A DNA stretch of 64,000 nt from a virus (Duplodnaviria > Caudoviricetes). Of this stretch, positions 3,500 through 24,551 are shown in pieces (positions within the stretch are counted from its first letter, which is position 1; every line of letters starts with the position of its first letter). Location: positions 32,001 through 96,000 of the IMG/VR virus record IMGVR_UViG_3300021387_003827. The stretch is one strand, 5' to 3'. A program made the translations under genes and the position numbers. The notes beneath the pieces are model-generated. The model ran no database searches and was not told the origin of the DNA. It saw only the letters and a program-made list of their open reading frames with translations.

Positions 3500-5203
3500 A
3501 TGAAAAGAAACGAGAACCTGATACAAAAAATCTTCGGAGCTACATCCGTCGGAAAAGGTGGAATGCCTCTTCGCTCCAATATATATGGAACAAGAGGATA
3601 TACCCCTATCGGACAGACTGGCTCTAGAATTTTTGATAATGAAAGAAACTCTCCGCTACTTGGAAACTATGCTGCCTCTAATACCTTAAGTGGATATTAC
3701 GAGAAGCTTAGTGAACTTAGGGGATATCAACTATTAGATATCTCAAAATTAGCGGTAAACTTCTTCTCTGACTATATCATAAACTTTCTTGCAGATGATT
3801 CAAACGGCTATCAGATTGCTTCTATCCTTAATGATGAGGGTGAAATAGATGAAGTCGTTTCCGAAAGAATTAATGATATTCTGTCCAAAGATATTCGTAT
3901 TTTTGACTATATCAAGGATCATATTCAAGATTATGTATTCTATGGAGACTATTATTCCATGCTTCTTGCCTCTAAAGACGATGAAGGACATACAAAGTTT
4001 AGAGTCGAAGAACTTTATGACCCAATTGCAGTAGTCGTTAAGAAAAAGAGGGGCAAAGATGGTGAGATGGATGAGGTGTTTCTAGCCAAAGGAGATGACG
4101 GTAGTGTATATGAGATTCCAAAAGAAGAAGTTATATACTTAGCCACCAATAATTTGAGATTAAAGAATGATATCTCGGGGAATTGGAAAGAAACCGCAAA
4201 ACCTAAATCTATAAAAGATCAGAAAAATCGCGAAAAAGTTCTCCTTAAAGAATCATTTTCTGCATCTGAACCACTATTTTACTCTCTAATCCTGAAAGTA
4301 AAGGAGCTCGTAGTAAAGGAGCTTCTTGTTTCTCTTATTAGTCTTAGAGATTTGTCTTCGGTTCAGATATTCCTTCTTCAATTTGATAAGTCCGTTCCCC
4401 TTGAAACTGCAGAAGAATTGTGTTCAAAGACTACAAAATTAGCTAATGCAACTAATGAAGTAGCCTCTTTCCTTACTTCTCAGTTTGATGTTGTGAGCTT
4501 TATTGAGAATACTTTGGTTCAGTCCGCTAAATTTGTTCCAGATTATAATTCGACAATTGGCGGAAAAAACGCTATGGTCCCTCTTGATAAGCTCTCTGAT
4601 AAGCTCTTAGACATTATGCAATCTATAGATACTTGTAGGAATAACGTCTTAGGGCCTCTTGGATTACCTTCTACCATTGTCGATTCTACGTCTGGCTCAA
4701 AGTGGCAAGTTCTCCAACAGTCTGAACGGGCTAATTCAAGAGTAGCATTCTTTATGGCTGGTATTAAGGACTCTGTCACTAGTCTTGTATGTAATATCTA
4801 TAAGATTATTTATGGAGAAGAATTAAATCCAAGTTGTGTAAAACTTCATATTGCAGAAAAAACGTCCGTCGAGTATAATAATCAAATTAACCAGTCTGAG
4901 TCTATAAATGGCCTCTTAAACGGTCTTACTCAGGTTATAAGTAATGCTCTCCAGACGTTAGAACAGGCTTCACCGCTGATTGATGCTAGGGCTTATCTTT
5001 CGTATATTCATAACTTACTTAAAGATATAGACCCCAACACCGAATCAATCATAACTAAGGATACAATGAATACTTATCTTAAGACCTTAGTCGCGAAGCT
5101 TAGAAATCAATATGAACAGCTAGGAATGAATCCAGAGGATATAATGTCTCTATTCCCAGATCCAGAGGAAGAAGAACAATCATCTAAACTAGAAAAATTA
5201 TGA
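3500..5203 (+). CDS. portal protein (T4 gp20-like)
   Basis: 567 aa, first gene of the head module ahead of protease, scaffold and MCP; DYVFYGDYY resembles the gp20 W/Y-V-D-G segment; helical C-terminal half. Confidence 0.65.
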   Translation: MKRNENLIQKIFGATSVGKGGMPLRSNIYGTRGYTPIGQTGSRIFDNERNSPLLGNYAASNTLSGYYEKLSELRGYQLLDISKLAVNFFSDYIINFLADDSNGYQIASILNDEGEIDEVVSERINDILSKDIRIFDYIKDHIQDYVFYGDYYSMLLASKDDEGHTKFRVEELYDPIAVVVKKKRGKDGEMDEVFLAKGDDGSVYEIPKEEVIYLATNNLRLKNDISGNWKETAKPKSIKDQKNREKVLLKESFSASEPLFYSLILKVKELVVKELLVSLISLRDLSSVQIFLLQFDKSVPLETAEELCSKTTKLANATNEVASFLTSQFDVVSFIENTLVQSAKFVPDYNSTIGGKNAMVPLDKLSDKLLDIMQSIDTCRNNVLGPLGLPSTIVDSTSGSKWQVLQQSERANSRVAFFMAGIKDSVTSLVCNIYKIIYGEELNPSCVKLHIAEKTSVEYNNQINQSESINGLLNGLTQVISNALQTLEQASPLIDARAYLSYIHNLLKDIDPNTESIITKDTMNTYLKTLVAKLRNQYEQLGMNPEDIMSLFPDPEEEEQSSKLEKL

Positions 5204-5499
5204 TTATACTAAGAGATAAATCATTCTCCGATAAGAAAGAAGATATCGGAAGAAAAGCCAGGAATACTGGTATTATAGCGGCTGGAACTGGTGCTGGGAT
5301 GTATGCACTTGGGAAACTTGGCGAGAAGGTAGGCAGAGGAAAAAGTAAGTATGCCGAAAGTCTAGCCAAGAAAGGACCTAAAGCTAAAACTGCCGGACTA
5401 ATTCTTGCTGGTTCTGGAGCTGTTCTTAGTGCCGCCGGTGAAATAAAACGTAGGAGAGATAAGAAAAAGAGCCATGATAATTCTAAGAAAGAAGACTAA
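5200..5499 (+). CDS. small basic Gly/Ala-rich membrane-type protein with KxFS leader (putative internal head/ejection protein)
   Basis: MIILRDKSFS leader; two hydrophobic Gly/Ala segments flanked by Lys/Arg. Confidence 0.6.
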   Translation: MIILRDKSFSDKKEDIGRKARNTGIIAAGTGAGMYALGKLGEKVGRGKSKYAESLAKKGPKAKTAGLILAGSGAVLSAAGEIKRRRDKKKSHDNSKKED

Positions 5500-5800
5500 G
5501 TCATTTTCTTTCGAGGAACAGGAGCAGATTACATCAAGGGAGCTTCAAATAGAGCAACTGAGGATGCAAAGGCAAATTCTGGAGACTCAAAAGCTCAAGG
5601 AAAAACTTAGGGCACAAGAGTCACAGCAGCGCTTAAAACAGCTCTCCCAGGCTCAAAAAGTTGAACAGAAGAGAGATATGGAGGAAGACAAAAATCAGAT
5701 TAAGGTCAGAAGGATCGAAGATGAAAATAATTCCCCCAAGAATGTAAGTCTCTATAAAACAAGATCTAAAGTAATCACTCCTATTCCGATGAGAGGATAA
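5474..5800 (+). CDS. coiled-coil protein with KxFS leader (putative head protein)
   Basis: MIILRKKTKSFS leader; Q/E/K/R heptad-rich body. Confidence 0.6.
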   Translation: MIILRKKTKSFSFEEQEQITSRELQIEQLRMQRQILETQKLKEKLRAQESQQRLKQLSQAQKVEQKRDMEEDKNQIKVRRIEDENNSPKNVSLYKTRSKVITPIPMRG

Positions 5801-5804
5801 TATT

Positions 5805-5939
5805 ATGAATGAAGAATTAAAAGAAAAGACGTTCGTGGAAGGATGTGAGAATGCTCCTAGCGAACTTTCTGAAAAGACATATAATCCATTACATAGTAGC
5901 GATGAAGAACTTTTTACGAAAAATTTTCTCCTGGGTTAG
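5805..5939 (+). CDS. 44 aa small ORF not in the ORF track
   Basis: MNEELKEKTFVEGCENAPSELSEKTYNPLHSSDEELFTKNFLLG*; starts 4 nt after the previous stop. Confidence 0.4.
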   Translation: MNEELKEKTFVEGCENAPSELSEKTYNPLHSSDEELFTKNFLLG

Positions 5940-6198
5940 AAGTCAGACATGGATTCCAGAGTGGTTAAGAGAGTCTAATCGAGAGAAGCACTTAGTTCTC
6001 GGAATTCCTTGTGGGTTCCTATCATTAATCTTTACCTTAGGCTGTGCATGTGGTCTTGAGACTAAAGACGTACAATATAATAATTGGGACTTTAAAGCTT
6101 GGGACTGGAAAGATTTTGGTGCTACAATGATTGGCGGCTTTATTGGCTTCCTCATTCGCTCTATTATCATACTTGTAATACTTTTAATCGTACATTAA
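5902..6198 (+). CDS. small integral membrane protein (likely start ATG 5902)
   Basis: MKNFLRKIFS...; two hydrophobic segments around a WDWKDFGAT motif. Confidence 0.6.
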   Translation: MKNFLRKIFSWVRSQTWIPEWLRESNREKHLVLGIPCGFLSLIFTLGCACGLETKDVQYNNWDFKAWDWKDFGATMIGGFIGFLIRSIIILVILLIVH

Positions 6199-6201
6199 TA
6201 T

Positions 6202-6873
6202 ATGGAAAGCAATCCCTTTGGCTCTGATGATTTAAGAAATAAAATCCTTGCCAAAGAAGGAAGGCTGGATATAGATAGTCAGAGTCAAGATAACGACGAT
6301 CTTATGGGGATTATATCTTCTGCCCCGGTTATTCCGAATAGCGCAAAGAATGTAATCCTGGACTCAAAAGCAATGGCCATAGCAAACCGGAAAGAAAAAG
6401 AAGGTGAAATTGCTGTGGCTATAACAGATATGCTTACGGACCTCAATGAACAGTATGACCTAGATTTGGATGGAATTAATATAAATAATTTCACACAAAC
6501 TCTAGCTAATGTCATTGATCCTAAGAAACGTGAGATACTTGAACTCTATGTCTCTGAAATAAGTAAATCTATAAAACCCGTCCTCTACTTGCATATTCTC
6601 CAAAGACTTATGTTAGTTATGGATAATGTTCTTAGTCCGGAAGTTCTGTTCTCAAATGAATTCTCAGCCCCTGACAAGGTTCTACTTCTTGAAAAGATTG
6701 TAGCTATGGCTGGAGAATTATCAGACGCCCTGGAAGAAATGAAAGTGGAGAATTCTGATGCCGTTCTTAAGAAGATAGCAGAAACAAAGAACGATGAGAA
6801 CTTAGAATCACCCGAGTCTAAGAAGATAATAGAGGAATTTATGTCAATGTTTAAAAAAGATAAAGGACTATGA
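6202..6873 (+). CDS. hypothetical helical protein in the head module
   Basis: 223 aa ORF coupled to its neighbours; no recognisable motif. Confidence 0.7.
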   Translation: MESNPFGSDDLRNKILAKEGRLDIDSQSQDNDDLMGIISSAPVIPNSAKNVILDSKAMAIANRKEKEGEIAVAITDMLTDLNEQYDLDLDGININNFTQTLANVIDPKKREILELYVSEISKSIKPVLYLHILQRLMLVMDNVLSPEVLFSNEFSAPDKVLLLEKIVAMAGELSDALEEMKVENSDAVLKKIAETKNDENLESPESKKIIEEFMSMFKKDKGL

Positions 6874-7283
6874 TTGTATATAGAAGTAAACTATTTACAG
6901 ATATAAACGAAGACATAGTAACGAGATATCTTGGTGTTCTGGGAGGTTTTATCTTTAAGGCCAAATCTTTACATTGGGCAGCCTCTGGAAAAGATATACA
7001 TGAATATCTTGATGATTTCTGGGAGATTATTTATAATTTCCAAGACACCGTAGCTGAGTGTTGGATGGGAATAAATGGCCAGCTTGGTCCGGATGATGTG
7101 ACCTTTGTTGCCGCCGAATCCCAAAACCCAAAGGATTTCATTAAAGAAGTTGAAGATAAGACCACTGATTTTTATGAACTTCTTCCACAAGATGACCCTC
7201 GATTTAAGGGACTTATCAGCGAAGTGGAGAATTTCATGCACGAGATAGAAAAATATAAGTATCTCTTTGGTCTTTGTATGTAA
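6870..7283 (+). CDS. Dps/ferritin-like four-helix-bundle protein with KxFT leader
   Basis: LHW...IHEYLDDFWE...QDTVAE matches the Dps HW-x-H-x-D/E ferroxidase pattern; MIVYRSKLFT leader. Confidence 0.75.
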   Translation: MIVYRSKLFTDINEDIVTRYLGVLGGFIFKAKSLHWAASGKDIHEYLDDFWEIIYNFQDTVAECWMGINGQLGPDDVTFVAAESQNPKDFIKEVEDKTTDFYELLPQDDPRFKGLISEVENFMHEIEKYKYLFGLCM

Positions 7284-7318
7284 AATAAAATAATGTCGGG
7301 AAACGTTATTTTTGGTAC

Positions 7319-7518: not shown

Positions 7519-8814
7519 ATGCGTTGTAAGGTAAAATTATTTAGCACCAATCCGACTGAATTAGCAGCGGATGGTAGTCATGTGCCTGCTTCGTCATTCC
7601 TTGAATATAGAAATAGTGATAATTACAAGAAGATGATTGCATCTAAGACTGGATGGGTTTCTGCCACTCATAGAGGTAGAGCTCTGTCTAATGCAACTAA
7701 TTCTGGACCAACTATCGCTAAATCTGTAGGCAGAAATGATATGAGCCTGCTTATGACTGAACATGGAGCTGAGCCTATATTTTATATTACGAGCTTAGAT
7801 CTAGAGAATGATGGGTGGGTATATGCATGGATAGAGTCCTTCCCACCCGAAAATATGGACGACAATGCTCTCCAAACTTATAAGAGATTAAAATATCTTA
7901 TAATGGCTGGGTGTCTTATCTCTACCAGTATGGTATGTCTTGCCTTCTGGTCTGAGGAACCCGGGTCAAAGAAGTCCATAGCTAAGAAGATTGTATCCAT
8001 TTCCGGACTTGATTTTACCACCGGTCCTTCTTGGGCTGATAGTGGTATTGTAGAATCCTATGATGATTCTGGAAATCTTATATCAAGCCTCAGTGAACAA
8101 CTTACCACGAAGAAATTTTCGGATATTCAACTAGATGATATCAAATTCGAGGAAGTAAAAGTTAAGATGTTCTCTGATGTTTCTGATATTCCTGGTGCCG
8201 CCGGTCTTCCTAAGTCTTCAAAGATTGATGGATCTTTCACTAGACTGGGAGCTAAGTCCTTCTCATACACTGGGACTTGTGGTGGTATCTGTGAGGTTGC
8301 AGAAGATGAGGAGGATAAAACATTCTCTGAACCAGAACAGAAGGAATTCACTCAGGCTCAAGTTAGAGAAAGACTTAGAGAGGCTAAAATGGGTGGTCCG
8401 AGAATGGAAATGAGACGTACAATTCTTTCCTATAAACAGCTTCTGAAACAAATGGGTGGAGTTGATAAGATGAATCCTGAGGATGTAAAAATTCTCAAAT
8501 CTCTCCTTACCTCCGATCTTCTCCGTATTGTGGGAAGTGTTTCAGATCAAATTGCAAGTGGAAAGAATATTAATACTCTCCTTGGTCTTAGCTCTTTAGG
8601 ATCTACGTTTAGGAAATATGGCCAAGCTCTTATGATGCCAATGAAACTCGGTATAAACGAGCTTAAGAGAAATGGATTTGTTACCAAAGCAAGATATCAG
8701 AAGCTTCAGGCTGCATATACTGATTTTGTTAATGCGGTAGTAGAAGATATTTTTGGTCCAAATCCTAGCCCAGTCATTAATGAAGACGAGAATCTAGAAG
8801 AAAATGAAGAATAA
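7519..8814 (+). CDS. prohead maturation protease (T4 gp21/HK97-type fold) with C-terminal extension
   Basis: Position before scaffold and MCP; candidate His (THRGR) and Ser (ISTSM); GLDFTTGPSW resembles the gp21 D-x-x-x-G-P-S segment. Confidence 0.75.
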   Translation: MRCKVKLFSTNPTELAADGSHVPASSFLEYRNSDNYKKMIASKTGWVSATHRGRALSNATNSGPTIAKSVGRNDMSLLMTEHGAEPIFYITSLDLENDGWVYAWIESFPPENMDDNALQTYKRLKYLIMAGCLISTSMVCLAFWSEEPGSKKSIAKKIVSISGLDFTTGPSWADSGIVESYDDSGNLISSLSEQLTTKKFSDIQLDDIKFEEVKVKMFSDVSDIPGAAGLPKSSKIDGSFTRLGAKSFSYTGTCGGICEVAEDEEDKTFSEPEQKEFTQAQVRERLREAKMGGPRMEMRRTILSYKQLLKQMGGVDKMNPEDVKILKSLLTSDLLRIVGSVSDQIASGKNINTLLGLSSLGSTFRKYGQALMMPMKLGINELKRNGFVTKARYQKLQAAYTDFVNAVVEDIFGPNPSPVINEDENLEENEE

Positions 8815-9448
8815 TATGGAAAAAAGAATTAAATTATTTTCTCGTCCTGAAGAAAGAAAGATTAAATTATTCTCGGCCGATAGTGAAGAGCTTGGATTTC
8901 AGAGGGTATTTTCTGAAACAACTGACCCTCTTGAACTTAAGCTCAAAGAATTTTCCGGCCGTGAGCTAGATCTTTCAGAGTATGAAAAGGAATTCAGCGA
9001 TTATGACCTTATCGAGAAAGGTTATGCTGAAAAATCTGAAAACTCTGTTAAAATTACATCTTCTGCATTCCCCATGTCTCGCCTATTCTCTACAATTACT
9101 ATAACTATTGCAGATGATTTAGGCCTAGATAAGGATATAGTTTGTGGAAAATGTAATAAAGAAGAGGTTATTTCCGGACTACATGAAAGACTAAGCCCAG
9201 CTGCTATCATGATTTTAAAACAGGCTCATGGTATTCCAGTTGAAGAAGATCAGAATACTTGGATAAAGGATTCTGGTATTGAGAAAGATATTGATTTTGA
9301 ATTTAAAGAGGATGACTCTAAACCCCTCCCCGAATTCAAAAGATTTCTTGAAGAAAGATATAACGACGCACCATCCGATATTCTTGATATCCTCAAAAAT
9401 AAAGGTATCATAAGAGTTGATGGCGAAGTGGTAAAAATTATAAAGTAA
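8804..9448 (+). CDS. prohead core protein with six [KR]xFS sites
   Basis: KLFS x2, RVFS, KEFS x2, RLFS in the first ~96 aa; lies between protease and scaffold. Confidence 0.6.
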   Translation: MKNNMEKRIKLFSRPEERKIKLFSADSEELGFQRVFSETTDPLELKLKEFSGRELDLSEYEKEFSDYDLIEKGYAEKSENSVKITSSAFPMSRLFSTITITIADDLGLDKDIVCGKCNKEEVISGLHERLSPAAIMILKQAHGIPVEEDQNTWIKDSGIEKDIDFEFKEDDSKPLPEFKRFLEERYNDAPSDILDILKNKGIIRVDGEVVKIIK

Positions 9449-9463: not shown

Positions 9464-11611
9464 ATGGTAACTAGACTTATGTCACGACTCTTCTCTGCCA
9501 CCGAGGAAAGAGATTCTGAACTTACCGAGCAGGTTGGTAATGATATCGAGGCCGCAAAGAAAAATGGTGTTGTCGATACTGAAGAGTTAAAGTTTGAAGA
9601 CAAAGGTGATGGCAAGGTTGCTATTACCGACAAAGAAAATGGCGAGGTGACTATGGCAGAGCTGAACCAGGAAGGTCAATATGAGCTTTATCCTGCCGAG
9701 CAGTCTGAGCAGATCGAGGGCTTTATCCACCCGGAAGGGGATGGTGTAACTCCTGGTGCTCAAGTTGGCGCTCCGGATGAGCATGCTGAAGACCACATGA
9801 CTGGTGAAGATGTTATAGCCCCCAATAAAGAAGATGGTGGCCTGAATCCTGAAGCTGGCCACGAAGCGAGAGTTGACGATTCTCAGAAGCCCGCAGAGGA
9901 TGTATGCCCTGAGTGTGGCAAAAACCCTTGTGAATGCGAGAAGGATGAGAAAGAGAAGGAATTTAGTGTTTCTACTGACAATGCTGCTGTTCTTCGTATC
10001 TTCTCCGATCAAGAATTCTGTGAGAGAATCTTCTCTGAGGTTATCGCTACCGAAGAAACCGCTAAGGTTGGTGATCTGAAGGTTGAAAAAGTTGCTGACG
10101 AGGACAATGCCGTTATCGTTACTTCTGAATCCACTGGTGATCAGGCTAAGGTTGTGGTTAATGAAGATGATCTTGATGTGTCTGAATTAGACAGTAAGGA
10201 ATTCTCTGATGATGAGGACGAAGATGATGAATGCAAGAATTGTCATGACGACGCTGCCTATGCTCTTAGAGTTGTTGGTGTTGACACTGACAATCACGTT
10301 CTTATCGACTCTCCTGTGTATGACGAACAGGCCGCTAATGACCTTGTAAATCGTCTTAATGAACTTGGCATTGAAGGTGTTCAGGTATTTGGAAGTGATG
10401 AAGAGGCTCGTGAATATGCTGCAGAACTTCTTAATAGTCTCGGCGTAGAGTCCGATGATGACATTGATGAGCCCGAAGAGGCTACATTCTCAGACACTGA
10501 CGAATATACCCTTTATACTACCCAGTTCTCTACTAACCAGACCTATACGAATGAAGCCCAAACTAAGTTCTTCTCCGAGAAAGAAAACATGACTGACTAT
10601 ATGGTTCGTCTGTTCTCTGAGGAAGCTAGTGAGGAAGCTATTGAGTCTGCTGTTGCCCAGGGTATTCCGATTGCCACTGAAAATGAAACCATCGTTCCTA
10701 TCGATGAAGCCACTGCTGTCATTGAAGATAAGGAGAATGGTGAATATACCTTAGCTGTTGTTAACGAAGATCACATTGAGGTTAATCCTATCGATGAGGA
10801 TTCTGCTAAAGGTATGATAGAGGAAAAGGATACTCCTAAGCCCGAAGTTGAGGAGGAAAAGGACTTCTCCGAAATGTATTGCAACGAAGCTCAGACTAAA
10901 TTCTTCTCCCTTGGTGAGCCTATGACCCAGTATATGGTTCGCCTGTTCTCTGATGTTTCCGATCAGGAGGATATTGAGAAGGCTATCGAGTCTGGTGATA
11001 AGGTTGAGACTGAGACCGAAATCATCACTCCTATCGATGAGAAGACCGTCGTGGTTGAAGATAAGGAGAATGGTGAATTTACTAAGGCAGTTCTTGATGA
11101 GGAAGACATTGACGTTAATCCTATTTCAGAGGCTGAGGCTGCTGAACTTCTCCCCGCAGAGAGCGACGTAAAAGTCGAAGTAGAGGAAGAGAAGAAAGAG
11201 GATTCTGACGACAAGCACGAGGAAGAGAAGAAAGAAGACGACGATGAAAAGAAGGAGGATGAGAAGAAATTCTCCGACCCTATGTCTAAGTTCTTCGCTG
11301 AGGTCTCTGGTGTTGCTGTAGATGCTCCTAAGACTGTTGAATTTATTGTGGATGAGAATGGTAATCCCGTTCGTCCGGTTGTAGCTGAGGCTGATTCTGA
11401 AGAAGCTACTCCCGTTGAGGCAATTGAAGATAAGGCCCTTGCTGCTGTTCAGTCCATTCAGGCTGCTGCCGCTGAAGCCCAAGCTCAAATCCTTAACGCA
11501 AAATCTGCTCCTGTAGAGAATCAAGAAGATCTCCAGGAAGCTACATTCTCTCAGAAAGAGAGTAATTCCAATGACATCGTTGTTTCTTGGATTAAAGGAA
11601 ACATGAGATAA
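9464..11611 (+). CDS. acidic scaffolding/prohead core polyprotein with internal repeats
   Basis: Very D/E-rich; directly upstream of MCP; highly-expressed codon bias; 11 [KR]xFS sites; repeated DKENGE domain. Confidence 0.75.
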   Translation: MVTRLMSRLFSATEERDSELTEQVGNDIEAAKKNGVVDTEELKFEDKGDGKVAITDKENGEVTMAELNQEGQYELYPAEQSEQIEGFIHPEGDGVTPGAQVGAPDEHAEDHMTGEDVIAPNKEDGGLNPEAGHEARVDDSQKPAEDVCPECGKNPCECEKDEKEKEFSVSTDNAAVLRIFSDQEFCERIFSEVIATEETAKVGDLKVEKVADEDNAVIVTSESTGDQAKVVVNEDDLDVSELDSKEFSDDEDEDDECKNCHDDAAYALRVVGVDTDNHVLIDSPVYDEQAANDLVNRLNELGIEGVQVFGSDEEAREYAAELLNSLGVESDDDIDEPEEATFSDTDEYTLYTTQFSTNQTYTNEAQTKFFSEKENMTDYMVRLFSEEASEEAIESAVAQGIPIATENETIVPIDEATAVIEDKENGEYTLAVVNEDHIEVNPIDEDSAKGMIEEKDTPKPEVEEEKDFSEMYCNEAQTKFFSLGEPMTQYMVRLFSDVSDQEDIEKAIESGDKVETETEIITPIDEKTVVVEDKENGEFTKAVLDEEDIDVNPISEAEAAELLPAESDVKVEVEEEKKEDSDDKHEEEKKEDDDEKKEDEKKFSDPMSKFFAEVSGVAVDAPKTVEFIVDENGNPVRPVVAEADSEEATPVEAIEDKALAAVQSIQAAAAEAQAQILNAKSAPVENQEDLQEATFSQKESNSNDIVVSWIKGNMR

Positions 11612-15519: not shown

Positions 15520-15729
15520 ATGATACTTAAGAGATTTTCATCTACCAAGATTTTAAATACTAATGCTCCCGGATTTATCAGAGGTAGAAAATATGACACT
15601 GACATGGATAGACTTGGAAGATTGGAAACCTCTGGTCAATTATCCAATGGTTTAGGAGAATTAGAGAAAGAAAAACGGAAGATGAAAGATGAATTAAATA
15701 AAGGAAGCTTATGGCAACGTACAGATTAA
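15520..15729 (+). CDS. small protein with KxFS leader
   Basis: MILKRFS; KYDTDMDRLGRL resembles KYDETDNLKRM of 17366. Confidence 0.55.
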   Translation: MILKRFSSTKILNTNAPGFIRGRKYDTDMDRLGRLETSGQLSNGLGELEKEKRKMKDELNKGSLWQRTD

Positions 15730-16064
15730 AGAGAAAATATTTTGGTACAGTCGGCGAAATAGGAAATGCTGCAGCCAATATAGTTGGTGGTACCGTCAAT
15801 GCTGCCAAAAATACCGCCGGAGCTGTCCTTGAAGGAACCGGTGGAGCAGTAAAGACAGTTAGTGGTCTTGCTGAACCTGTAGGTGCAGTTGGAGGTGGTG
15901 CTCTCGGTGCTGGACTTGGCCTTATTGGTGGTCCAGTTGGATCTCTTATTGGCGGAACTATCGGGTCAATGGTAGGAGGCGGAGCTGGAAAACTTGTGAA
16001 GACTACAGGAAAGGCAGTTGGGGAAGGACTCCAGACCGCCGGACAAGGAATGCAAGGTTATTAA
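15711..16064 (+). CDS. glycine-zipper membrane protein with KxFG leader
   Basis: MATYRLKRKYFG; GAVGGGALGAGLGLIGGPVGSLIGGTIGSMVGGGAG (GxxxG arrays). Confidence 0.7.
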   Translation: MATYRLKRKYFGTVGEIGNAAANIVGGTVNAAKNTAGAVLEGTGGAVKTVSGLAEPVGAVGGGALGAGLGLIGGPVGSLIGGTIGSMVGGGAGKLVKTTGKAVGEGLQTAGQGMQGY

Positions 16065-16068: not shown

Positions 16069-17364
16069 ATGATAAAGTTTGTACAAAAAGAATATGTTCT
16101 TCCTGCTCTTGGCGCTATGGCTTCAAGATTTCTAGCAACTCAAGGCGGTCAGTTGGTTGCTTCTGGGGTTGCTTCAGCTGCACCAATGGCCGGAGTAAGT
16201 GGCATTCTTGGTGCACAAGCAAATAAAACCGCAAAAGAACAGGGTCAAGAGATGATGGAGATGCAAAAGAGACAGATGGCAGAACAAAGAAAGATGTTGC
16301 AAAAACAGCTTGAAATTCAACAGCAGGCCGTCAATAAGGGTGTGTCTCCAACAGCTGAAATTAAGACTTTTGCTATAAATCCACAGACTCTAAAGAATAT
16401 TAAGGGTGCCGTTAAAGGGATTATTGATGTATCTCACTCAAATGGAAGAAATCTGACCAAGTCTGTAGTTCACGGATTAACCATGGGTGCAGGTATGGCA
16501 GGAGCTGGATACATCGCTAATAAGGCCATTGAAAAAGACGCCAAGAAGTCTGGGATTATATCTGATACTCCTGAAAGTGAAGAATCTAAGAAAAAGAGAA
16601 AGTCCAACTTAATAAAAGGTGCTGCTATTCTTGGAACTACGGCAGCCGCTCTTTATGGTGCAAGGAAAGGAAAACTTGGTGGTACTCTTCAAAATATGGT
16701 TTCTAAAGAAAACGTTGGAAAGCTTGGAGAATATGCAAAAGAGTCCGCCAAAGATGTTTTCAGCCCGATAAAGAAAGATGCTAAAACAGGAAAGAAATCC
16801 CTTAATGGTTCTGCGGCATTTACCTATGGAGTTGGTGCTGTTATGCCTGTAGTCGAATATAAAGCAAAAAAGAAGCAGATAGAAGAACAGGCTGAGAAGA
16901 CCTATGCAATTCCAGCAGGACTTGGAAAAGCTGCCCTAAAGAGGGTTGGTGTAGCGGCTGCAAAATATAAAGACCCACTGATTAAAGGAACTAAGTCTAT
17001 CGGACAATCAATTGGTAGATTCATTAAGGCCCCGATTACTAAAACTATGGATGGAATTAGTAAGTTATCCGGTGCTGGAATTAAAGAATCTAAAAGTTTT
17101 CTTAATGATGTCAAAGCCAAAGGGGTAAAGGAAAATAATCCAATACTCGAGAAATTAGGTGGACTAGGAAAACACCTCGATACCAATGAGAAAGGTAGAT
17201 TAAGTCTTAAAGGAAAGGCTCTTCTTGGTGGTGCCACTGTTGTAGGAAGTACAGTAATGTTTAAACCCTGGGAAATGGGTGAAAAGGCAGTAAAGAAAAC
17301 TCTTGAGACCGCTGATAAGAATGCATATGCTTATGAAAAGTCTCAGGAACAAGAAGTAAAATAA
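16069..17364 (+). CDS. basic amphipathic/Gly-Ala-rich putative polyprotein (likely start ATG 16069)
   Basis: MIKFVQKEYV leader; internal KTFA and KTYA; several hydrophobic Gly/Ala helices. Confidence 0.65.
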   Translation: MIKFVQKEYVLPALGAMASRFLATQGGQLVASGVASAAPMAGVSGILGAQANKTAKEQGQEMMEMQKRQMAEQRKMLQKQLEIQQQAVNKGVSPTAEIKTFAINPQTLKNIKGAVKGIIDVSHSNGRNLTKSVVHGLTMGAGMAGAGYIANKAIEKDAKKSGIISDTPESEESKKKRKSNLIKGAAILGTTAAALYGARKGKLGGTLQNMVSKENVGKLGEYAKESAKDVFSPIKKDAKTGKKSLNGSAAFTYGVGAVMPVVEYKAKKKQIEEQAEKTYAIPAGLGKAALKRVGVAAAKYKDPLIKGTKSIGQSIGRFIKAPITKTMDGISKLSGAGIKESKSFLNDVKAKGVKENNPILEKLGGLGKHLDTNEKGRLSLKGKALLGGATVVGSTVMFKPWEMGEKAVKKTLETADKNAYAYEKSQEQEVK

Positions 17365-17365
17365 T

Positions 17366-17788
17366 ATGGGAACTTTTAAGATAAAAAGAAAGTTTTTCTC
17401 TAAATATGACGAAACTGACAACCTGAAAAGAATGAAGGACTCCGACATTCTTGCTGAAAAGAAGAAAGAGTCTCCTTCTCTTATTCCTACTGCCAGAGCA
17501 GGTATTACTGGAGCTTTGGCTGGTGGTGCTGTTCTTGGAACTGCCGGGATGATAAAAGCAAAGAAAGCAGGTTCGTCCATATTAAAGGGAGGAAAGAAAG
17601 GAGCCATAGCTGGTGCCTTACTTGGAGCCGCTGCTCTCGGTGCTTCCGCACTTAAGAAACGCGAAAAAGAATCTGAGGATAATCATTTCTATAACAAGAG
17701 ATTAGAATATGCCCAGAAACAGGCGAAGAGGAGAGAGGCTAAGGACTGGAAAGAAAATATGACCCAAAGAGATGGGTATTCATATTAG
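17366..17788 (+). CDS. glycine-zipper membrane protein with KxFS leader
   Basis: MGTFKIKRKFFS; GITGALAGGAVLG and GAIAGALLGAAALG. Confidence 0.65.
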   Translation: MGTFKIKRKFFSKYDETDNLKRMKDSDILAEKKKESPSLIPTARAGITGALAGGAVLGTAGMIKAKKAGSSILKGGKKGAIAGALLGAAALGASALKKREKESEDNHFYNKRLEYAQKQAKRREAKDWKENMTQRDGYSY

Positions 17789-17794: not shown

Positions 17795-18802
17795 ATGATG
17801 ATTACGTTTAGTGAAAAGAAATTTGGTAAGCTGGGGAAGGCTGCAAAAAAGGGCATTGAATCGATACAGAATGATCCAGCCAAACTAATTATACCTGCCC
17901 TAACTTCTACTCCAGGCGTTGCTTTAGGTCTAGCTAATTTGACGGTCAATAAAGATCGAAGAAAGAAAGATCGAGAGTTACGTCAAGCCCAGATTGAAGC
18001 TACAAATAAATTAGTTGAAGCACTGGAAAATGAAAATAGAGCTGAAGCCAAGAGCAGGGCTATTAAATTAAGAAGAGCCTATAAGAAACCTATAGCGGAT
18101 GACCAAGTTCCTGCTGCACTAGATCAAGTAAAAAATAAAGTATTGAAAGGAGAAGATATGATTTCTTTTAAGAAAAAAGACTTTAGTATTCTTTCTGATG
18201 CTGTTTCTGGAGCCGCTATTGGTGGTACCCTGGGAATGGGAGCTACACCAATTATACTCAAGAAGAAAGATAAGATCGTACTCGGGAAAAAGGGAACCAC
18301 TATAGATCTAGACGGTGTAGGAAAAGGAGCCGTAGGATTTGCCGCTGGAACCATAATTGGCGCTGCTCTTGGATTAGTTGTTGGCGGAATCAAAGAAACA
18401 GCTAAATTCATAAATAGAGCCAGGACTGTAGATAAGAGACTGATGCCAGGTATAATCGAGGATCTAAAGAAAGGTAATTTCAAAGAAGGAAAAGACTTCA
18501 CTAGAGATCCTAAGACTGCAAATGAGCTTAAAACAAGAGTTTGCGTTGTAGTTACGAAATATTCTGGCGATCTACGGATCCTCATTAATACAGTATCAGA
18601 TCAGAAATTATCACAGATAACTAAAGACTCTATTAAGAATATACCAAATTCTTCTGTGGTCAATGAAAAGGTCACAGATAGATATAATGATATTACAGTT
18701 TCTACTATTTCAGATTCTTCGGCAGATCCTGCATTAATCTCTGGAATAGCGGAAAGATTTATAAGAAACGGTTATCCAGTATATCTGGTTGAAGTTGGTT
18801 AA
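17795..18802 (+). CDS. two-unit Gly-zipper protein with N-terminal and internal leaders
   Basis: MMITFSEKKFG, plus internal in-frame MISFKKKDFS at 18158. Confidence 0.65.
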   Translation: MMITFSEKKFGKLGKAAKKGIESIQNDPAKLIIPALTSTPGVALGLANLTVNKDRRKKDRELRQAQIEATNKLVEALENENRAEAKSRAIKLRRAYKKPIADDQVPAALDQVKNKVLKGEDMISFKKKDFSILSDAVSGAAIGGTLGMGATPIILKKKDKIVLGKKGTTIDLDGVGKGAVGFAAGTIIGAALGLVVGGIKETAKFINRARTVDKRLMPGIIEDLKKGNFKEGKDFTRDPKTANELKTRVCVVVTKYSGDLRILINTVSDQKLSQITKDSIKNIPNSSVVNEKVTDRYNDITVSTISDSSADPALISGIAERFIRNGYPVYLVEVG

Positions 18803-18824: not shown

Positions 18825-20990
18825 ATGGCAGAATGGAATGAAACTCTTGAGCCGTATATAAAAGTTCAGGAAAGAATCAAATCCGCAACGCAAAATCCTA
18901 CTACAGGAGATGAGCTCATTATTGGTGTTGCTATAGTGTCGGATGCTGGTTCTGGAGATCCTACCCTTGTTCGCGGTCAGAAGGAGTTTGTAGAAAAATT
19001 TGCTTCTCAAGAAGAAATAACCAGCGAATATCTATCATCGCTGGATAAATTATATGGGGACGGTACTTTAAATATCGCCTCTACTATGTGGGCTAACGCC
19101 TATAGACTTGCTGGATCCAATACTCTTTTGGTTACCAGAGCCACTAAGTCTGATAGCTCATATTTCACCAAACCTCTGTCTCCTGATCAGACTGTTGGTG
19201 GAAAGACCTTTATTCTCAAGGATGGAGAATTACTAGTTAGAGTGACTGGTTCAGCCGGAACTGGTGGAATTAAGTTTGTTATTGATGTAAATGGAGACTC
19301 TGCAGAACATGCCGGAACTGGCTGGTGTATTAATATATCTGACGTAGGAGTCTTTGGTAACCGCGTTGAAGATGCCGGCCCAGTATATGATTATCTAGCT
19401 ACCGATCTCCCTTCACTCGTAGAACAGTTAAACGAGACTTCTAAATTCTTCTCTCCAGACTATAAGTTCTATACGGATCTGGATGGCAAGACAACTCAAG
19501 AATGGAATGGTGTGAATCCTCTTGAAGTGAAGACTGTTCTCTTTAATGAATTATATATTGCCGCCAATATTCTTGACAAATCTGACCCAAGAATGGAAGA
19601 CGGTATGTATAATATGGTAGTAGCTGACTCTGATTGGCAGCTTACAACCCCTATTACTGAAAATATGGTTATAGACCTCAATGCTCTTGCCTCTGTGGAT
19701 TTCCCTGAGTATTATGTTATTAATGCATATAATTCAGCTACAGATCTGAAGGTGAGAATCAGACGGTTTAATCATGACGCAGTATCCTCTGTTGATGTTC
19801 CTGCTTCCACAGACCTTACGTCAGTCACAGCCTCACAATCACGACTCATAAGTGATTCTTATCTTGGGTCTGTTTCTGAAGATAAAGATTTCTACGAGGT
19901 TGCAATTCTTGATAAGAGTCTGTCCTCGACGGTTCTCTATTTTAACATAGGAACAAAAACTGGAAGAGGTGATATAACTGTAGATGAGCTTCAGGAGAAT
20001 ATGAAGATGCTTAGCTTTGTTCTTCCTGATGATATGGGTGATCTTGGTCTTAATTATTATGGAGACACCAGAGAAGGAAAGACCGATAAGCAAGAGATTC
20101 TCGTAAATGCTAAGGTTAATACGGACAGCAGTAAGATTCTCAATGTTACAGTAGATGATCTTAAGAAAGCCCTAGATCTTATCACCGAAGATGAGGTTTA
20201 TGTTACTGAGGGTCTTTCCGATCTTGGCTGTACAGATCTTACCTTCCAGAACTACATTGCTAATATCGCTATCAATGAAAATTACTTTATTCCTAACTCC
20301 ACAGTCAATAGTACAAACTATATGACTATTGGAAGTTTTGCAAAGAAGATTAATCGTGATAGTGAAAAGCAATATATGTCTGCACCTTGGGACATAGATA
20401 CTGCAACTCTCGGATTCAAATTTTATGCTAGTCCTTCTGTTCTATACTGGGAGACCGTATCAAAGAATAGAAGAAACAATAATGAATTTGCTTCTGTACT
20501 AGGTGAAACTACTGGTGTTGTGGGTTATCAGAGACCAGTAACCGAATTTAATAAAAAGACAAGACAGCTTCTTCTTACCAGAAAAGTCAATACTGTACTT
20601 TGGGATAATTCAATCTCTAACTGGTGTATGAATGATTGCTATACTACTCAATCTACAAATACCGTTGAAAATGAAGATGGTAATGCTAGATTAGTAATTC
20701 ATATCAGCAAGAATATTCCAGTCATTCTTAAGCAGTTTATTGGTAAGAAAATCAACGAGAAATTATGTTCTGATGTTGAAGGAGCTATTGGACATTGGTT
20801 CAAGATGTATATCCTACCTCTTGGAACTACTGTAGAAGCCTTTAATGTAGTTTGTAATTTTGATGCTGCTCTTGCCAGACAAAATAAGATAAAAGTTGTT
20901 GTTCAAGTAAGACTCCCCCGTGCTCTTAAGTTCATCGATGTTTACAACGACATCTATGATACCGGCATGGAGTTTGAGGTTGTTGAATAA
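18825..20990 (+). CDS. contractile tail sheath protein
   Basis: N-terminal PYIKVQE; C-terminal sheath signature ARLVIHI...LKQFIGKKIN...KIKVVVQVRLPRALKFIDV. Confidence 0.85.
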   Translation: MAEWNETLEPYIKVQERIKSATQNPTTGDELIIGVAIVSDAGSGDPTLVRGQKEFVEKFASQEEITSEYLSSLDKLYGDGTLNIASTMWANAYRLAGSNTLLVTRATKSDSSYFTKPLSPDQTVGGKTFILKDGELLVRVTGSAGTGGIKFVIDVNGDSAEHAGTGWCINISDVGVFGNRVEDAGPVYDYLATDLPSLVEQLNETSKFFSPDYKFYTDLDGKTTQEWNGVNPLEVKTVLFNELYIAANILDKSDPRMEDGMYNMVVADSDWQLTTPITENMVIDLNALASVDFPEYYVINAYNSATDLKVRIRRFNHDAVSSVDVPASTDLTSVTASQSRLISDSYLGSVSEDKDFYEVAILDKSLSSTVLYFNIGTKTGRGDITVDELQENMKMLSFVLPDDMGDLGLNYYGDTREGKTDKQEILVNAKVNTDSSKILNVTVDDLKKALDLITEDEVYVTEGLSDLGCTDLTFQNYIANIAINENYFIPNSTVNSTNYMTIGSFAKKINRDSEKQYMSAPWDIDTATLGFKFYASPSVLYWETVSKNRRNNNEFASVLGETTGVVGYQRPVTEFNKKTRQLLLTRKVNTVLWDNSISNWCMNDCYTTQSTNTVENEDGNARLVIHISKNIPVILKQFIGKKINEKLCSDVEGAIGHWFKMYILPLGTTVEAFNVVCNFDAALARQNKIKVVVQVRLPRALKFIDVYNDIYDTGMEFEVVE

Positions 20991-21089: not shown

Positions 21090-21824
21090 ATGCAAAAGAC
21101 CTTATTGAAAGATTTAAAAAAGAAGATATTTATAAGATCTTCTATGCTGGCGGTAAGCTCATTAGACGAAATATTTGGGCTTAATGATTATCTCTCACCA
21201 GATGAGGTCTTACTTGAAATAATAAAAAAGGCCTTAAGTGAGTTTGAGATATCTAACCCCCTCATTCTAGAGATGAAGGTATGTAAAGATCAAATGGGAA
21301 CCTGCTATGGAAGACAGGGATATTCAGAAATTAAGAGCAATTTTACACTTTACTTAGATTGCATGATATCTGAAGATCAAATTATTCTTGTTCCAACAGT
21401 TACCCCATACCTAAGACTTCTCAATAGTTATCCTGCTCCTGGGTCTTGGTATCCCGCTACAGACTATCAAGCACCATATCTTTTCACACAAGATATACCG
21501 TTTTATGGAGGTCAATTTTGGATAAGGGGAATTTGCTCCAGGCCGATTATTCCGGATTTTACACCGGATGGAAAGTTTAATGAGGCAAGTACAAAGAGCG
21601 CCATCTACTGGTTAAATATAGAAGAAGGAGCATTAGGAACTTATTTTATGGACCTCTGCATGGTTCATGTCTTAGATTATATCCGTCAACTCAAGGCATC
21701 TATTCAACTCCCCTCTATGTCTGTTGATGTGTTGGGAAATATAGATACAGCATATCAGGAGCTCAGAGCGAGGTGCGACCAATATCAATTACAATCTTCT
21801 TGGTACGGAGGACTACTAGTATGA
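21090..21824 (+). CDS. putative neck/head-tail adaptor protein (gp13-like)
   Basis: 244 aa; C-terminal helix plus IQLPSMSVD pattern reminiscent of gp13; synteny. Confidence 0.45.
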   Translation: MQKTLLKDLKKKIFIRSSMLAVSSLDEIFGLNDYLSPDEVLLEIIKKALSEFEISNPLILEMKVCKDQMGTCYGRQGYSEIKSNFTLYLDCMISEDQIILVPTVTPYLRLLNSYPAPGSWYPATDYQAPYLFTQDIPFYGGQFWIRGICSRPIIPDFTPDGKFNEASTKSAIYWLNIEEGALGTYFMDLCMVHVLDYIRQLKASIQLPSMSVDVLGNIDTAYQELRARCDQYQLQSSWYGGLLV

Positions 21825-22354
21825 TTATATTACGACAGAAAAATTATTCTTCACCTCTTACTAAGGCTCTCTATAGAAAGGAGAAACTCGTATCTGGTTT
21901 AAAGAAAGGTGCTGCCGGACTAAGAACCAACCTCACTAGGGCTGTTTCAAAGTCTCCTCTTAGTCCAAAAGTTATAGCCGCACAGGAACTGGAAAGAAAG
22001 GTAGCAATTGACGGAAAGGCGGCAAAACGGAGAGCCATTCAATCCAAAAATAAGATAGAGGCAGCCAAGAATTATATAGGAACATCTACGCCGGGACAGA
22101 TTGCTTCTGATGTAGTTGGGGAAGTAATAAGACGACCAGTATTCGTTGGTGGTGCGGTCGGTGGATATGCTCCTTTGGCTTATGGAGTATATGTCCCTTT
22201 TACAACTCCGACAGCTTTAGCATTAGAAGAAGGCGCTAGAAAAATAGTTCCTGGGTATGCGAAAGTTACAGACTCCTTATCTAAAGCATATAATAAAAGC
22301 GGAAAGAGAGTGGTTTCGAACCTAGTAGATTCAGCAACTAAAGCTATTGTATGA
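21821..22354 (+). CDS. basic protein with KxYS leader (likely start ATG 21821)
   Basis: MIILRQKNYS; hydrophobic VFVGGAVGGYAPLAYGV segment. Confidence 0.6.
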   Translation: MIILRQKNYSSPLTKALYRKEKLVSGLKKGAAGLRTNLTRAVSKSPLSPKVIAAQELERKVAIDGKAAKRRAIQSKNKIEAAKNYIGTSTPGQIASDVVGEVIRRPVFVGGAVGGYAPLAYGVYVPFTTPTALALEEGARKIVPGYAKVTDSLSKAYNKSGKRVVSNLVDSATKAIV

Positions 22355-22962
22355 TAGAGTTTAAAGAAAAGATATTTTCCATAGAAAGTGGAAATTTTGA
22401 AGGAACTAAAAGAATTCCCAAGAAAGGAAAAGAAATTCTACATAAACTCCTATCTGGTGTCGATGCTGGGTCTGGTCTAAAGGGATTTCTCAGCAGTGGA
22501 GATGAAGTTTATAAATCTTCTAATTTCTGGGATAAGATTCAAGATTTTAATTCTTGGATTAAAGCTACTGCAGAAAACAGCCTCTTCAACTCCGGGAGAA
22601 AAAAGAAGTTTAACTCTTTTGATATAATTTCTGCATTAAGGGGAAAAATAGATATTAATAAAGACCCAAAAGACTATGTCGTATCAGCGTATAGTTTTGG
22701 CAATTCATTAATACTATTTATAAATAAGCCTAAGAAGAAAGAATTATCAAAATTAAATGACATATTAAGTAATTATTGTTTTGAACATAAGGATACAGAT
22801 TATGCGTCTGAAAGAGTTGACAAAAATACATACGTTGTTGATGTATATGTTCCGAAAGATGCCTCTATAGACTTAATTTCTGATATTATCGATGATGATT
22901 TCAAGGTAAACATAATTACTGGATCAAAATTTATAAGTAAAGGTCGACAAGTATATGATTGA
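22351..22962 (+). CDS. putative internal head protein with KxFS leader, paralogue of 22955
   Basis: MIEFKEKIFS; LSKLNDILSNYC matches LEKVDNTLDYYC in 22955. Confidence 0.6.
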   Translation: MIEFKEKIFSIESGNFEGTKRIPKKGKEILHKLLSGVDAGSGLKGFLSSGDEVYKSSNFWDKIQDFNSWIKATAENSLFNSGRKKKFNSFDIISALRGKIDINKDPKDYVVSAYSFGNSLILFINKPKKKELSKLNDILSNYCFEHKDTDYASERVDKNTYVVDVYVPKDASIDLISDIIDDDFKVNIITGSKFISKGRQVYD

Positions 22963-24184
22963 ATTTATACAGAAGGAATTTACTCTGCAAGAGGGTCATT
23001 ATACTGGACCTAAGGATCAGGATAAATTACCCGGAGCTGTAGAAATTATAGGAAAAAGCGCGTTAGGTGGAGCTTTAGCGGGTTCTGCTGTCGGCGCAAT
23101 TCTAAAGGATACTACTGCCCTTGAAGGAGCAATTCAGGGTGGAAAATATGGAGCTCTTGCCGGCGTAATTCTTAAAGTATTTTTAAACTATCTTCATAAA
23201 CCAATGTCAAAAGTCAAGTTTCAGGAGGTAGATAGAAAGATACGTAAAGAATTTGGTATATATCGTGCTGCCGGAATTACTGTAGGAGACTCCATAAGTA
23301 ATAGAAAAGATGTTTCAGAGAAGTTTAGCTTCAATGATAGAAACGTTACGAACTATAAAATAACCATAACAGTACAAAATGATCAAGTGACTATGTATAC
23401 CTTTGGTCTTTCTGACAAAGATCTTGAAAAGGTAGATAATACCCTTGATTATTATTGTAAGAAATACTTTGGGATGAAATATAGCGCCTCTCTTTTATCT
23501 CAAAAAATGAATTCTTATGCCGTAACTATAGTCTTCACCAATTATCAAGTTATATCTAATTTCATTATGGAACTTTCCAATGAATTAGAGACGAAGATAA
23601 ATCTTATGGACAATGATGCTATAGTAGCTGGCAGACTTCAAGATGAAGAGGGAGAGGAGGATCAGAGAAATTTTAGTGTAGCCGAATTTGGAAAAAATGA
23701 TATTATAAAGATTCTTTCCGGCTCTGGGATATCTTTTATAAAGAATCTTACAAGAGGGAAAGGACTTGGGACGAGTATTTCCTGCGCTCTTCTTGAAATA
23801 TTATCAGGTTCGGCTAGAAAATTAACCAAAGATGAAATGGTTAAAGCAGGAATAAAGGCGCCTAGAGAAGCTTTCGGAAATAAGTATCTCTATGACACTC
23901 TTTTAAAACTTCATTATATTGACGGATTTAATTTCGTTTCTGGAGAAAAGAATTTCGACAATAATATGTCTATGATTGAAGGACTTTTTGTAGTAACTTC
24001 CTCCAAGAAAGATGATGTCTCTAAGATAGATAAATTATACTGGGGAAGTGGAAGAAATAAAATAAATAGGTCTAAGAATGGTGATGTTATTGTCTGGACA
24101 CATTCAATCCAAAGCCGAGTGGAATTCGAGTTCCTCTTAAAGAAATTAATGTCGTCTGGTATAAAATTTAATATATTTGAATAA
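22955..24184 (+). CDS. Gly-zipper-containing putative internal head protein with KxFT leader
   Basis: MIEFIQKEFT; GGALAGSAVGA; internal acidic linker ending RNFS. Confidence 0.6.
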   Translation: MIEFIQKEFTLQEGHYTGPKDQDKLPGAVEIIGKSALGGALAGSAVGAILKDTTALEGAIQGGKYGALAGVILKVFLNYLHKPMSKVKFQEVDRKIRKEFGIYRAAGITVGDSISNRKDVSEKFSFNDRNVTNYKITITVQNDQVTMYTFGLSDKDLEKVDNTLDYYCKKYFGMKYSASLLSQKMNSYAVTIVFTNYQVISNFIMELSNELETKINLMDNDAIVAGRLQDEEGEEDQRNFSVAEFGKNDIIKILSGSGISFIKNLTRGKGLGTSISCALLEILSGSARKLTKDEMVKAGIKAPREAFGNKYLYDTLLKLHYIDGFNFVSGEKNFDNNMSMIEGLFVVTSSKKDDVSKIDKLYWGSGRNKINRSKNGDVIVWTHSIQSRVEFEFLLKKLMSSGIKFNIFE

Positions 24185-24185
24185 T

Positions 24186-24551
24186 ATGATAATCAAAAGA
24201 GAAAAAAATTTCTCTAAAATAGTATCTGATAAAATTTCTGCAAAACTAGATCGTGACGGTATTCTTGATTATGAGGTTTCTGATAAGATCTCAGATGATA
24301 GCATATCTATAAGTTCTGATCTTTCAAATGTAGAAGTGTTTATCCCAATTGATCTAGAATATTCTCAGTATCCGATAGATGATATTCTTAGAAAAGTGGC
24401 CCCTTATCTTAGGAGCACTACGAATCTAGAAAGAGACATCTATATTCTCAGGGTACAAGGAAAAATGACAGAGGATCAATATTATAAATTTGTCAAGGGT
24501 ATTATAAAATCTGAAGAATTCATAACTATCCTTGAGAAAGATTTTATTTGA
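24186..24551 (+). CDS. putative internal head protein with KxFS leader (likely start ATG 24186)
   Basis: MIIKREKNFS. Confidence 0.55.
   Translation: MIIKREKNFSKIVSDKISAKLDRDGILDYEVSDKISDDSISISSDLSNVEVFIPIDLEYSQYPIDDILRKVAPYLRSTTNLERDIYILRVQGKMTEDQYYKFVKGIIKSEEFITILEKDFI

Follow-up and report, generated by a model that had tools for sequence, protein, structure and literature searches.

The DNA analysed here, called the window throughout, is a stretch of 64,000 bp (bases 32001-96000) of the IMG/VR phage record IMGVR_UViG_3300021387_003827, which is 182,986 bp long and carries direct terminal repeats. About 40 genes of this record, arranged in two blocks beside the head genes and amounting to approximately a fifth of its open reading frames (ORFs), encode proteins that begin with one leader peptide of about ten amino acids (aa), with the consensus MI(I/x)(L/F)(R/K)(Q/E)Kx(F/Y)S. 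The last residues of this leader, [KR]-x-[FY]-[S/G/T/A], recur as conserved internal sites in the head-core proteins of 14 relatives (orthologue alignments of 13 diverse relatives and this phage). Because the motif recurs, conserved, in the scaffold-like proteins, the protease linker and the capsid protein, and a protease with the fold of T4 gp21 is encoded in the same module, [KR]-x-[FY]-[SGTA] is most likely the cut site of the head protease. We propose that the phage probably uses a prohead core system of the T4 style with a new cut rule, in which the leader serves as a capsid-targeting and release tag.

A preliminary description of the window had reported one leader of about 10 aa on more than a dozen diverse ORFs. 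This is borne out on a larger scale, and the 14 N-termini quoted in it are all correct in sequence and position; for three of the quoted carriers (16069, 21821 and 24186; genes are named by their first base in the window) the start is an internal ATG of the longest ORF. Within the range 5200-24551, 19 genes bear the whole leader or part of it, the additional cases being 5902 (MKNFLRKIFS), 7519 (MRCKVKLFS), 8816 (MEKRIKLFS), 9464/9479 (...MSRLFS) and 14576, which has the first half only. The second block lies outside the window, on the minus strand at 5.4-26.2 kb of the genome, and contains approximately 21 genes, nearly all of which start with MII[LK]RQ[KR]x[FY]S. Phe or Tyr stands at exactly residue 9 in 25 carriers. 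When the first 30 residues of 212 ORFs were scanned with a weight matrix of 6 columns, derived from these same leaders, 36 matches were obtained, compared with a mean of 1.5 and a maximum of 6 for shuffled sequences. The motif is not equally frequent elsewhere: a loose regular expression applied at the called starts matched 29 of the 56 ORFs in the blocks and 6 of the 156 others (Fisher p 1e-14), and one of these 6 is the putative portal gene adjoining the block. In a complete 353-kb relative, approximately 24 leader ORFs were found, all within 252-294 kb around the head genes, and the other 310 kb contain only a few, chance-like matches. No description of the motif or of the leader was found in the literature searched. 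The genes of the window that enter into the argument are as follows.

3500..5203, plus strand: putative portal protein, 567 aa, so named from position and size only; QKIFG at residues 9-13.
5200..5499, plus strand: carrier, 99 aa, MIILRDKSFS; basic, Gly/Ala-rich.
5474..5800, plus strand: carrier, 108 aa, MIILRKKTKSFS; a leader of varying length in 6/6 orthologues found.
5902..6198, plus strand: weak carrier, 98 aa, MKNFLRKIFS; two segments are hydrophobic, and both orthologues found are without the leader.
6870..7283, plus strand: carrier, 137 aa, MIVYRSKLFT, then a ferritin/Dps-like four-helix domain.
7519..8814, plus strand: candidate prohead protease, 431 aa; N-domain (residues 1-190), linker (195-285) and C-terminal helical domain.
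8804..9448, plus strand: acidic core protein, 214 aa, with 7 [KR]x[FY][SA] sites, two of them N-terminal in tandem; start probably at 8816.
9464..11611, plus strand: very acidic scaffold-like protein, 715 aa; repeated modules (EKEFSE and YMxRLFSE) contain about 13 sites.
11637..13082, plus strand: putative major capsid protein; partial tblastn match annotated as putative major capsid protein, E 5e-6.
13197..13505, plus strand: carrier, 102 aa, MTTYKIKRFG.
14576..14953, plus strand: 125-aa protein whose start (MIEFKKKKSL) corresponds to the leader's first half only, without the putative Phe-Ser cut site.
14946..15518, plus strand: carrier, 190 aa, MIEFKEKRFS; second site QKEFG in a disordered loop.
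15520..15729, plus strand: carrier, 69 aa, short leader MILKRFS; 13/13 orthologues with a leader of 7-11 residues.
15711..16064, plus strand: carrier, 117 aa, MATYRLKRKYFG, 42% Gly+Ala.
16069..17364, plus strand: 431-aa protein with leader-like MIKFVQKEYV, an atypical residue after Tyr and a hydrophobic stretch next.
17366..17788, plus strand: carrier, 140 aa, MGTFKIKRKFFS; the flavour switches among orthologues, most of them with [KR]x[FY][ST].
17795..18802, plus strand: carrier, 334-335 aa, (M)MITFSEKKFG.
18825..20990, plus strand: tail sheath, without leader (negative control); PHROG 23, E 2e-6; 11/11 orthologues start MAQW.
21821..22354, plus strand: carrier, 177 aa, MIILRQKNYS, from the internal ATG.
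22351..22962, plus strand: carrier, 203 aa, MIEFKEKIFS.
22955..24184, plus strand: carrier, 409 aa, MIEFIQKEFT.
24186..24551, plus strand: carrier, 121 aa, MIIKREKNFS.

The internal matches to the weight matrix led to the genes directly upstream of the capsid gene. Four sites in the protease linker, seven in the 214-aa protein and approximately 13 in the 715-aa protein are conserved across the 14 relatives, while their flanks are variable. With a background rate of 0.30 sites per 100 residues, taken from tail and replication genes, the 214-aa protein has 6 internal sites where 0.58 are expected (P 3e-5) and the 715-aa protein 12 where 2.1 are expected (P 2e-6); over the core proteins the enrichment is 5- to 18-fold above background (P 2e-6 to 3e-5). 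In the capsid protein, AKMFS (residues 35-39) and QKTFS (residues 58-62) are the only sites matching the regular expression beyond residue 20, and K36, F38, S39, K59, F61 and S62 are invariant in 8 aligned sequences; they lie in a position comparable to that of the propeptide cut off gp23 in T4. In 4 of the 6 orthologues found of the 567-aa putative portal protein, which has no match in Pfam, PHROG or (by phmmer) PDB, there is also a K-x-F-G site close to the N-terminus. The order of the genes, i.e., putative portal, small leader proteins (5200-7283), protease, acidic core proteins and capsid protein, matches that of T4 genes 20-67-68-21-22-23, if the first is indeed a portal gene. The gap that separates the 6870 gene from the protease gene contains a perfect 14-bp inverted repeat (7451-7484), which resembles a terminator on either strand.

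The candidate protease (7519-8814) has 153 homologous clusters among 1.84 billion representatives, and in its N-domain H51, R54, D74 and S137 are invariant in 64 homologues. An AlphaFold model of residues 1-200, built with the 64 sequences, has a pLDDT of 92.8. The best Foldseek match of the N-domain is T4 gp21 (5jbl, E 1e-3), followed by herpesvirus proteases. Alignment of the N-domain with 5jbl_A by VIA-align gave a Z of 11.7 and an rmsd of 2.9 over 132 residues; after this entry come 27 herpesvirus protease entries (Z 6.1-9.8), and the first unrelated entry has a Z of 4.3. In an hhalign comparison with T4 gp21 (14% probability, a weak match), H51 falls on His85 and S137 is one position off Ser140, which we take to be the catalytic residues of T4 gp21. 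No match to Pfam Peptidase_S77 (PF03420) was found in the record at E up to 10, the protein has no other Pfam match, and neither it nor the capsid protein has a PDB match by phmmer. Thus the 431-aa protease belongs to the gp21 type (MEROPS S77) at the level of its modelled fold only. Its linker has five K-x-F-S/T sites in this phage; four [KR]-x-[FY]-[ST] sites are kept in 14/14 relatives and the rest of the linker is variable. Homologues at 25-30% identity likewise have a run of K-x-F/Y-S sites directly after the domain, and therefore the presumed cut rule, judged from these alignments, is a trait of the whole protease family beyond this genome. On two distant contigs the genes adjoining the protease gene start with MSKDKKFS and MTKTFS. 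A complex prediction of the protease domain with the leader alignment, run without controls, gave a score of 0.16 (mark 0.32), which counts neither for nor against recognition of the leader. In one 363-kb relative the protease gene seems to be split into two ORFs approximately 210 nt apart (5170-5400 and 5613-6596), in line with the fragmented prohead-protease genes of Jug phages (PMC12880540).

The leader contains more than the motif shared with the internal sites. In 25 canonical leaders the positions P8 to P4 (Ile2, Ile3, Leu/Phe4, Arg5 and Gln/Glu6) carry 2.6, 1.3, 1.5, 2.1 and 2.3 bits of information, and at 25 internal sites the same positions carry only 0.4-0.7 bits. In the 14576 family, 13/13 orthologues start with M-[IV]-x-F-[RK]-x-K, and in none does the canonical [FY]-[STGA] follow. 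The extra conserved positions of the leader, together with a family that keeps its first half without the cut site, suggest an address-plus-cleavage tag in two parts, like the T4 capsid-targeting sequence (CTS). Mutational work on the T4 CTS assigned targeting mainly to residues 4 and 7, and processing to residues 8 and 10; a variant that could not be cleaved was still packaged (PMC9026906). The strongest competing explanation is that the leader is a cleavage site only, the carriers entering the prohead otherwise, by their charge or mature domains, and the additional residues reflecting an extended subsite preference for N-terminal substrates. The strongest positions (K at P3, F/Y at P1 and S at P1') are indeed common to the internal sites, attraction between basic carriers and an acidic scaffold could make an address unnecessary, and the leader varies from 7 to 12 residues in length among orthologues. 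But the information at P8 to P4 has no equal at the internal sites, and a pure cleavage signal leaves the conserved first half of the 14576 family unexplained, so that we consider this explanation unlikely.

The Ile, Leu, Arg, Gln and Lys codons of the leader vary synonymously, and Ser is encoded by both TCN and AGY. Selection acts on the leader peptide, and since synonymous variation is seen at every conserved residue, a signal at the nucleotide level is ruled out. A promoter, ribosome site or downstream box was accordingly rejected; no upstream motif common to the carriers was seen, and promoter and terminator scans gave results at chance level. Could the leader be an uncleaved functional tag or an expression element, serving in translation initiation or in the mature protein, e.g., in membrane or DNA binding? 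The codons after the ATG are A/T-rich, many genes of the phage start with MI, often with an ATGA stop-start overlap, and the 14576 and 16069 variants appear to be uncleavable (orthologues of 16069 have MIxFRQKxF followed by V, F, S or N). Against this explanation, which we regard as very unlikely, stand the codon variation at serine and elsewhere, the absence of the tag from 150 of the 156 ORFs outside the two blocks, and the identity of its last four residues with the motif found throughout the scaffold, the protease linker and the N-terminus of the capsid protein.

It is highly improbable, in our view, that a host protease or another phage protease cuts the tag, as the host enzyme Prp, which cleaves ribosomal protein L27 after Phe, is used by the staphylococcal phage 80alpha, in which case processing would not be tied to the prohead and the carriers could be neck or tail proteins. 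A cut between Phe and a small residue resembles the Phe|Ala of L27 and of the 80alpha capsid and scaffold proteins (PMC5744158, PMC9405229), and several carriers are found among neck and tail genes. Full-size relatives also encode a canonical ClpP (E 9e-66 and 2e-50; 193841-194374 and 135532-136083), approximately 130-140 kb from the head genes. However, ClpP degrades its substrates processively, not site-specifically, and profile searches of this record gave no match to the S77, S78, ClpP or Prp (PF04327) families, while the phage's own gp21-fold protease has invariant His and Ser residues and sites in its own linker. The phyla whose L27 has the extension do not, to our knowledge, include Bacteroidota. 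Prp/L27-type processing was put aside on the lack of PF04327 in the record and on the predicted hosts of the presumably related Jug (jumbo gut) phages, which are Bacteroides or Phocaeicola (PMC12880540).

Paralogy of the carriers was examined as well and rejected. An all-against-all BLAST search with the first 13 residues left out gave only four weak pairs, and the tag is therefore common to diverse proteins. Among the homologues of 14946, a site is present in the first 14 residues in 120/120 listed clusters (with starts called by others): 113 start with MIxF[RK]QKxFSE, in which only positions 3 and 8 are free, and 7 have the MSTYRLKRKVF flavour. Orthologues of 17795 have a canonical [KR]x[FY][SG] leader in the first 10 residues in 9 of 13 cases. 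In orthologues of 15520 and 17366 the tag is 7-12 residues long and its flavour varies, and most keep the hydrophobic-basic start and [KR]x[FY][ST]. The leader was looked for in orthologues of the sheath, 13495 and 21090 genes and found in none. As far as the alignments go, its presence or absence is a stable, gene-specific property. The statement in the preliminary description that the interleaved tail-type genes (sheath, tube, neck and baseplate) lack the leader holds for the sheath, the sole gene of them that could be identified. That the leader is a historical residue of gene duplication or cassette recombination, devoid of present function, is scarcely credible: the leader genes are clustered and the minus-strand block is uniformly of the MIILRQK flavour, but no similarity is detectable beyond residue 13, and orthologues from phages with as little as 62% capsid-protein identity still have the leader, in which positions 3 and 8 drift freely.

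The carriers are small (median 167 aa), and once the leader is discounted 75% of them are net basic, compared with 20% of the other ORFs (p 7e-11). The 715-aa scaffold-like protein has a net charge of -0.20 per residue. This combination of basic carriers and an acidic scaffold mirrors the basic internal proteins and acidic core of T4. Pfam and PHROG scans of approximately 45 proteins gave almost nothing, and nearly all carriers are without a family match. The ferritin-like 6870 carrier is an exception, with matches to PHROG 3636 (E 4e-7), PHROG 858 (E 1e-6) and, below the family cut-off, Pfam DUF5856 (E 5e-6). As a side observation, a leader-bearing ferritin-like protein would, as a candidate cargo inside an HK97-type shell, recall the cargo proteins of encapsulins, and a distant relative has a 472-aa DUF5856 protein (5880-7298) with 7 K-x-F/Y-S sites. 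In a model of the 14946 carrier (pLDDT 66.7) the leader is unstructured and is followed by an alpha/beta domain, in which residues 92-145 are of low confidence. Comparison of the model with known folds gave no match (best Z 5.8; Foldseek E above 0.4) and places the carrier neither in the head nor in the neck; its look-up in the ESM Atlas was uninformative, as was that of the 22955 carrier, whose Atlas model is of low confidence and without named relatives. A second conserved site of 14946, FxQKxFxGGG, lies in the low-confidence loop between the two halves of the domain, and judging from this site the protein may be cut in two. When orthologue alignments of 13 window proteins were compared by hhalign with single T4 sequences (gp13-gp24), none reached a probability of at least 20%; the comparison is insensitive, as the PHROG-supported sheath also missed gp18.

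The mechanism that we propose is the following. The leader would be an N-terminal propeptide made up of two parts. The C-terminal one, [KR]-x-[FY] plus a small residue (usually S, more rarely G, T or A), would be the sequence that the phage's own protease for head maturation recognises; this enzyme would be the N-domain of the 7519-8814 protein (431 aa), modelled with the T4 gp21/herpesvirus assemblin fold. By analogy with the family's P3-x-P1 rule, the bond cut is probably the one that joins Phe/Tyr to the small residue. The same enzyme would chop the acidic scaffold-like proteins into short peptides, release itself at the sites in its linker, and remove a propeptide from the capsid protein at the sites in the first 62 residues. 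The N-terminal part, M-I-x-[F/L]-[R/K]-[Q/E], which has no counterpart at the internal sites, most likely docks the carrier on the acidic prohead core. In this way approximately 40 unrelated, mostly small basic proteins would be built into the prohead, cleaved free and left in the head together with the DNA. More tentatively, we put forward as possible a wider view, in which a modular tag, with one hydrophobic-basic half for addressing and another, separable half (K-x-F/Y|S) for release, loads a fifth of the record's proteome, including the ferritin/Dps-like protein and dozens of basic ORFans, into the capsid of an abundant clade of gut jumbo phages, and natural release-dead variants stay tethered or uncut.

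Several observations weigh against the proposed core system. The conservation of Ile2 is partly a genome-wide habit, many non-carrier genes also starting with MI. Cleavage itself is something that we infer, and the scissile bond is a guess. The portal and capsid proteins are putative, their identities resting on position and one weak tblastn match. No Peptidase_S77 match was found in the record, and the sequence relation of the protease to gp21, at 14% probability, is weak. The protease has KLFS at its own N-terminus within a confidently modelled beta-strand, so that not every match to the motif need be cut. No carrier could be assigned to the head on the basis of its fold or family, and four carriers (21821-24551) lie downstream of the sheath gene; their location in the head, suggested by T4 precedent only, is the least certain of all. 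Finally, the record is perhaps half of a genome (49% complete by CheckV), and another protease could be encoded elsewhere, such as the ClpP of the relatives.

The completeness estimate of 49% was obtained despite the terminal repeats, and the 183-kb record may be half of a genome or a truly smaller relative. Proteins with 62-81% identity to its capsid protein are encoded on 79 viral contigs, of which many measure 350-400 kb; the relatives with 71-81% capsid identity are 353-402 kb. One 355-kb contig carries an M42 peptidase 98% identical to that of the record; homologues of this peptidase yielded no taxonomy that would point to the host. The Jug phages have genomes of 360-402 kb, and the paper describing them reports divergent or fragmented prohead-protease genes, with no leader and no cleavage rule in it (PMC12880540). 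Size and habitat fit, and the source phage and its relatives are likely kin of the Jug phages. This phage group is common in gut metagenomes, approximately 90% unannotated, and has no cultured member among the relatives found. The M42 (TET/FrvX-type) aminopeptidase gene (413-1480, Pfam E 2e-56) and a NUDIX hydrolase gene (1693-2268) lie just upstream of the head module; that the aminopeptidase recycles scaffold fragments, predicted to be approximately 10-100 residues long, is pure speculation. Giant ORFs of 1601, 1585 and 2605 aa (47837-52642, 54476-59233 and 59246 onward) follow the baseplate region, none of them with a leader.

If the proposal of a targeting and release tag is correct, the processed head proteome could be predicted from sequence (approximately 40 proteins here and approximately 24 in the complete 353-kb relative), and the packaged, possibly injected arsenal of uncultured phages could be read directly. 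The carriers would be candidates for packaged DNA-binding or anti-defence proteins, as the internal proteins of T4 are. The system would also provide a portable packaging tag for phages of Bacteroidota, usable as a packaging handle if a host-phage pair were cultured, and a gp21-fold protease with aromatic specificity.

Elements of the system resemble several known ones. As in the Prp/L27 processing of 80alpha, a short N-terminal extension would be cut after Phe and before a small residue, there on capsid and scaffold proteins (PMC5744158). Prp, in contrast, is a host cysteine protease, and the context of its site is LNLQFF, while K stands at P3 here. The herpesvirus assemblins have the same fold as the modelled N-domain (Z 6.1-9.8), and as in them a C-terminal part of scaffold type follows the protease in one chain and would be detached from it by cutting at sites within the protein. 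Assemblin has Ala|Ser as its cut site, and the residue that follows the cut is likewise small. The present system differs from it in the aromatic residue before the presumed cut, the basic P3 and its many small cargo substrates, and in being a phage system. Head processing on an extensive scale in phiKZ and SPN3US has been well described, as has the T4 CTS (PMC9026906, PMC5694885, PMC10052503). Like phiKZ, 201phi2-1 and SPN3US (gp175, gp245), the phage has a diverged gp21-type protease, many head substrates and redundant scaffold-like sites (PMC9026906, PMC10052503); unlike these giant phages, which cut after Glu (S/A/G-x-E) and have long, variable propeptides, it has a uniform tag of approximately ten residues.

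The closest parallel is the T4 CTS (MKTYQEFIAE), which is carried by IPI-III and Alt and removed by gp21. In both cases an N-terminal tag of approximately ten residues is placed on unrelated, mostly basic proteins, the tag ends in the protease's own (here presumed) cut motif, which is found in the scaffold, the capsid protein and the protease as well, and the determinants of targeting and processing would lie in different halves (PMC9026906). The analogy with T4 was drawn in the preliminary description, and its core stands, with a protease of the gp21/assemblin fold, recurring sites and extra leader positions; packaging, an addressing role and ejection into the host would follow from the analogy and are kept here as conjecture. 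The leader was also said to be distinct in sequence from the T4 tag, and it has no similarity to MKTYQEFIAE except the initial Met. T4 differs in having only a handful of carriers, compared with approximately 40 here, and a protease that is not fused to a linker and C-terminal domain. Its cut rule is L/I-x-Glu, and neither this nor S/A/G-x-E is the recurring motif here, where a basic residue, any residue and an aromatic residue are followed by a small one ([KR]-x-[FY]-[SAGT]). The experimentally characterised gp21-type proteases cited here (T4, phiKZ and SPN3US) all cut after glutamate, and the range of cut sites known for this ancient fold would be broadened by a basic-x-aromatic rule.

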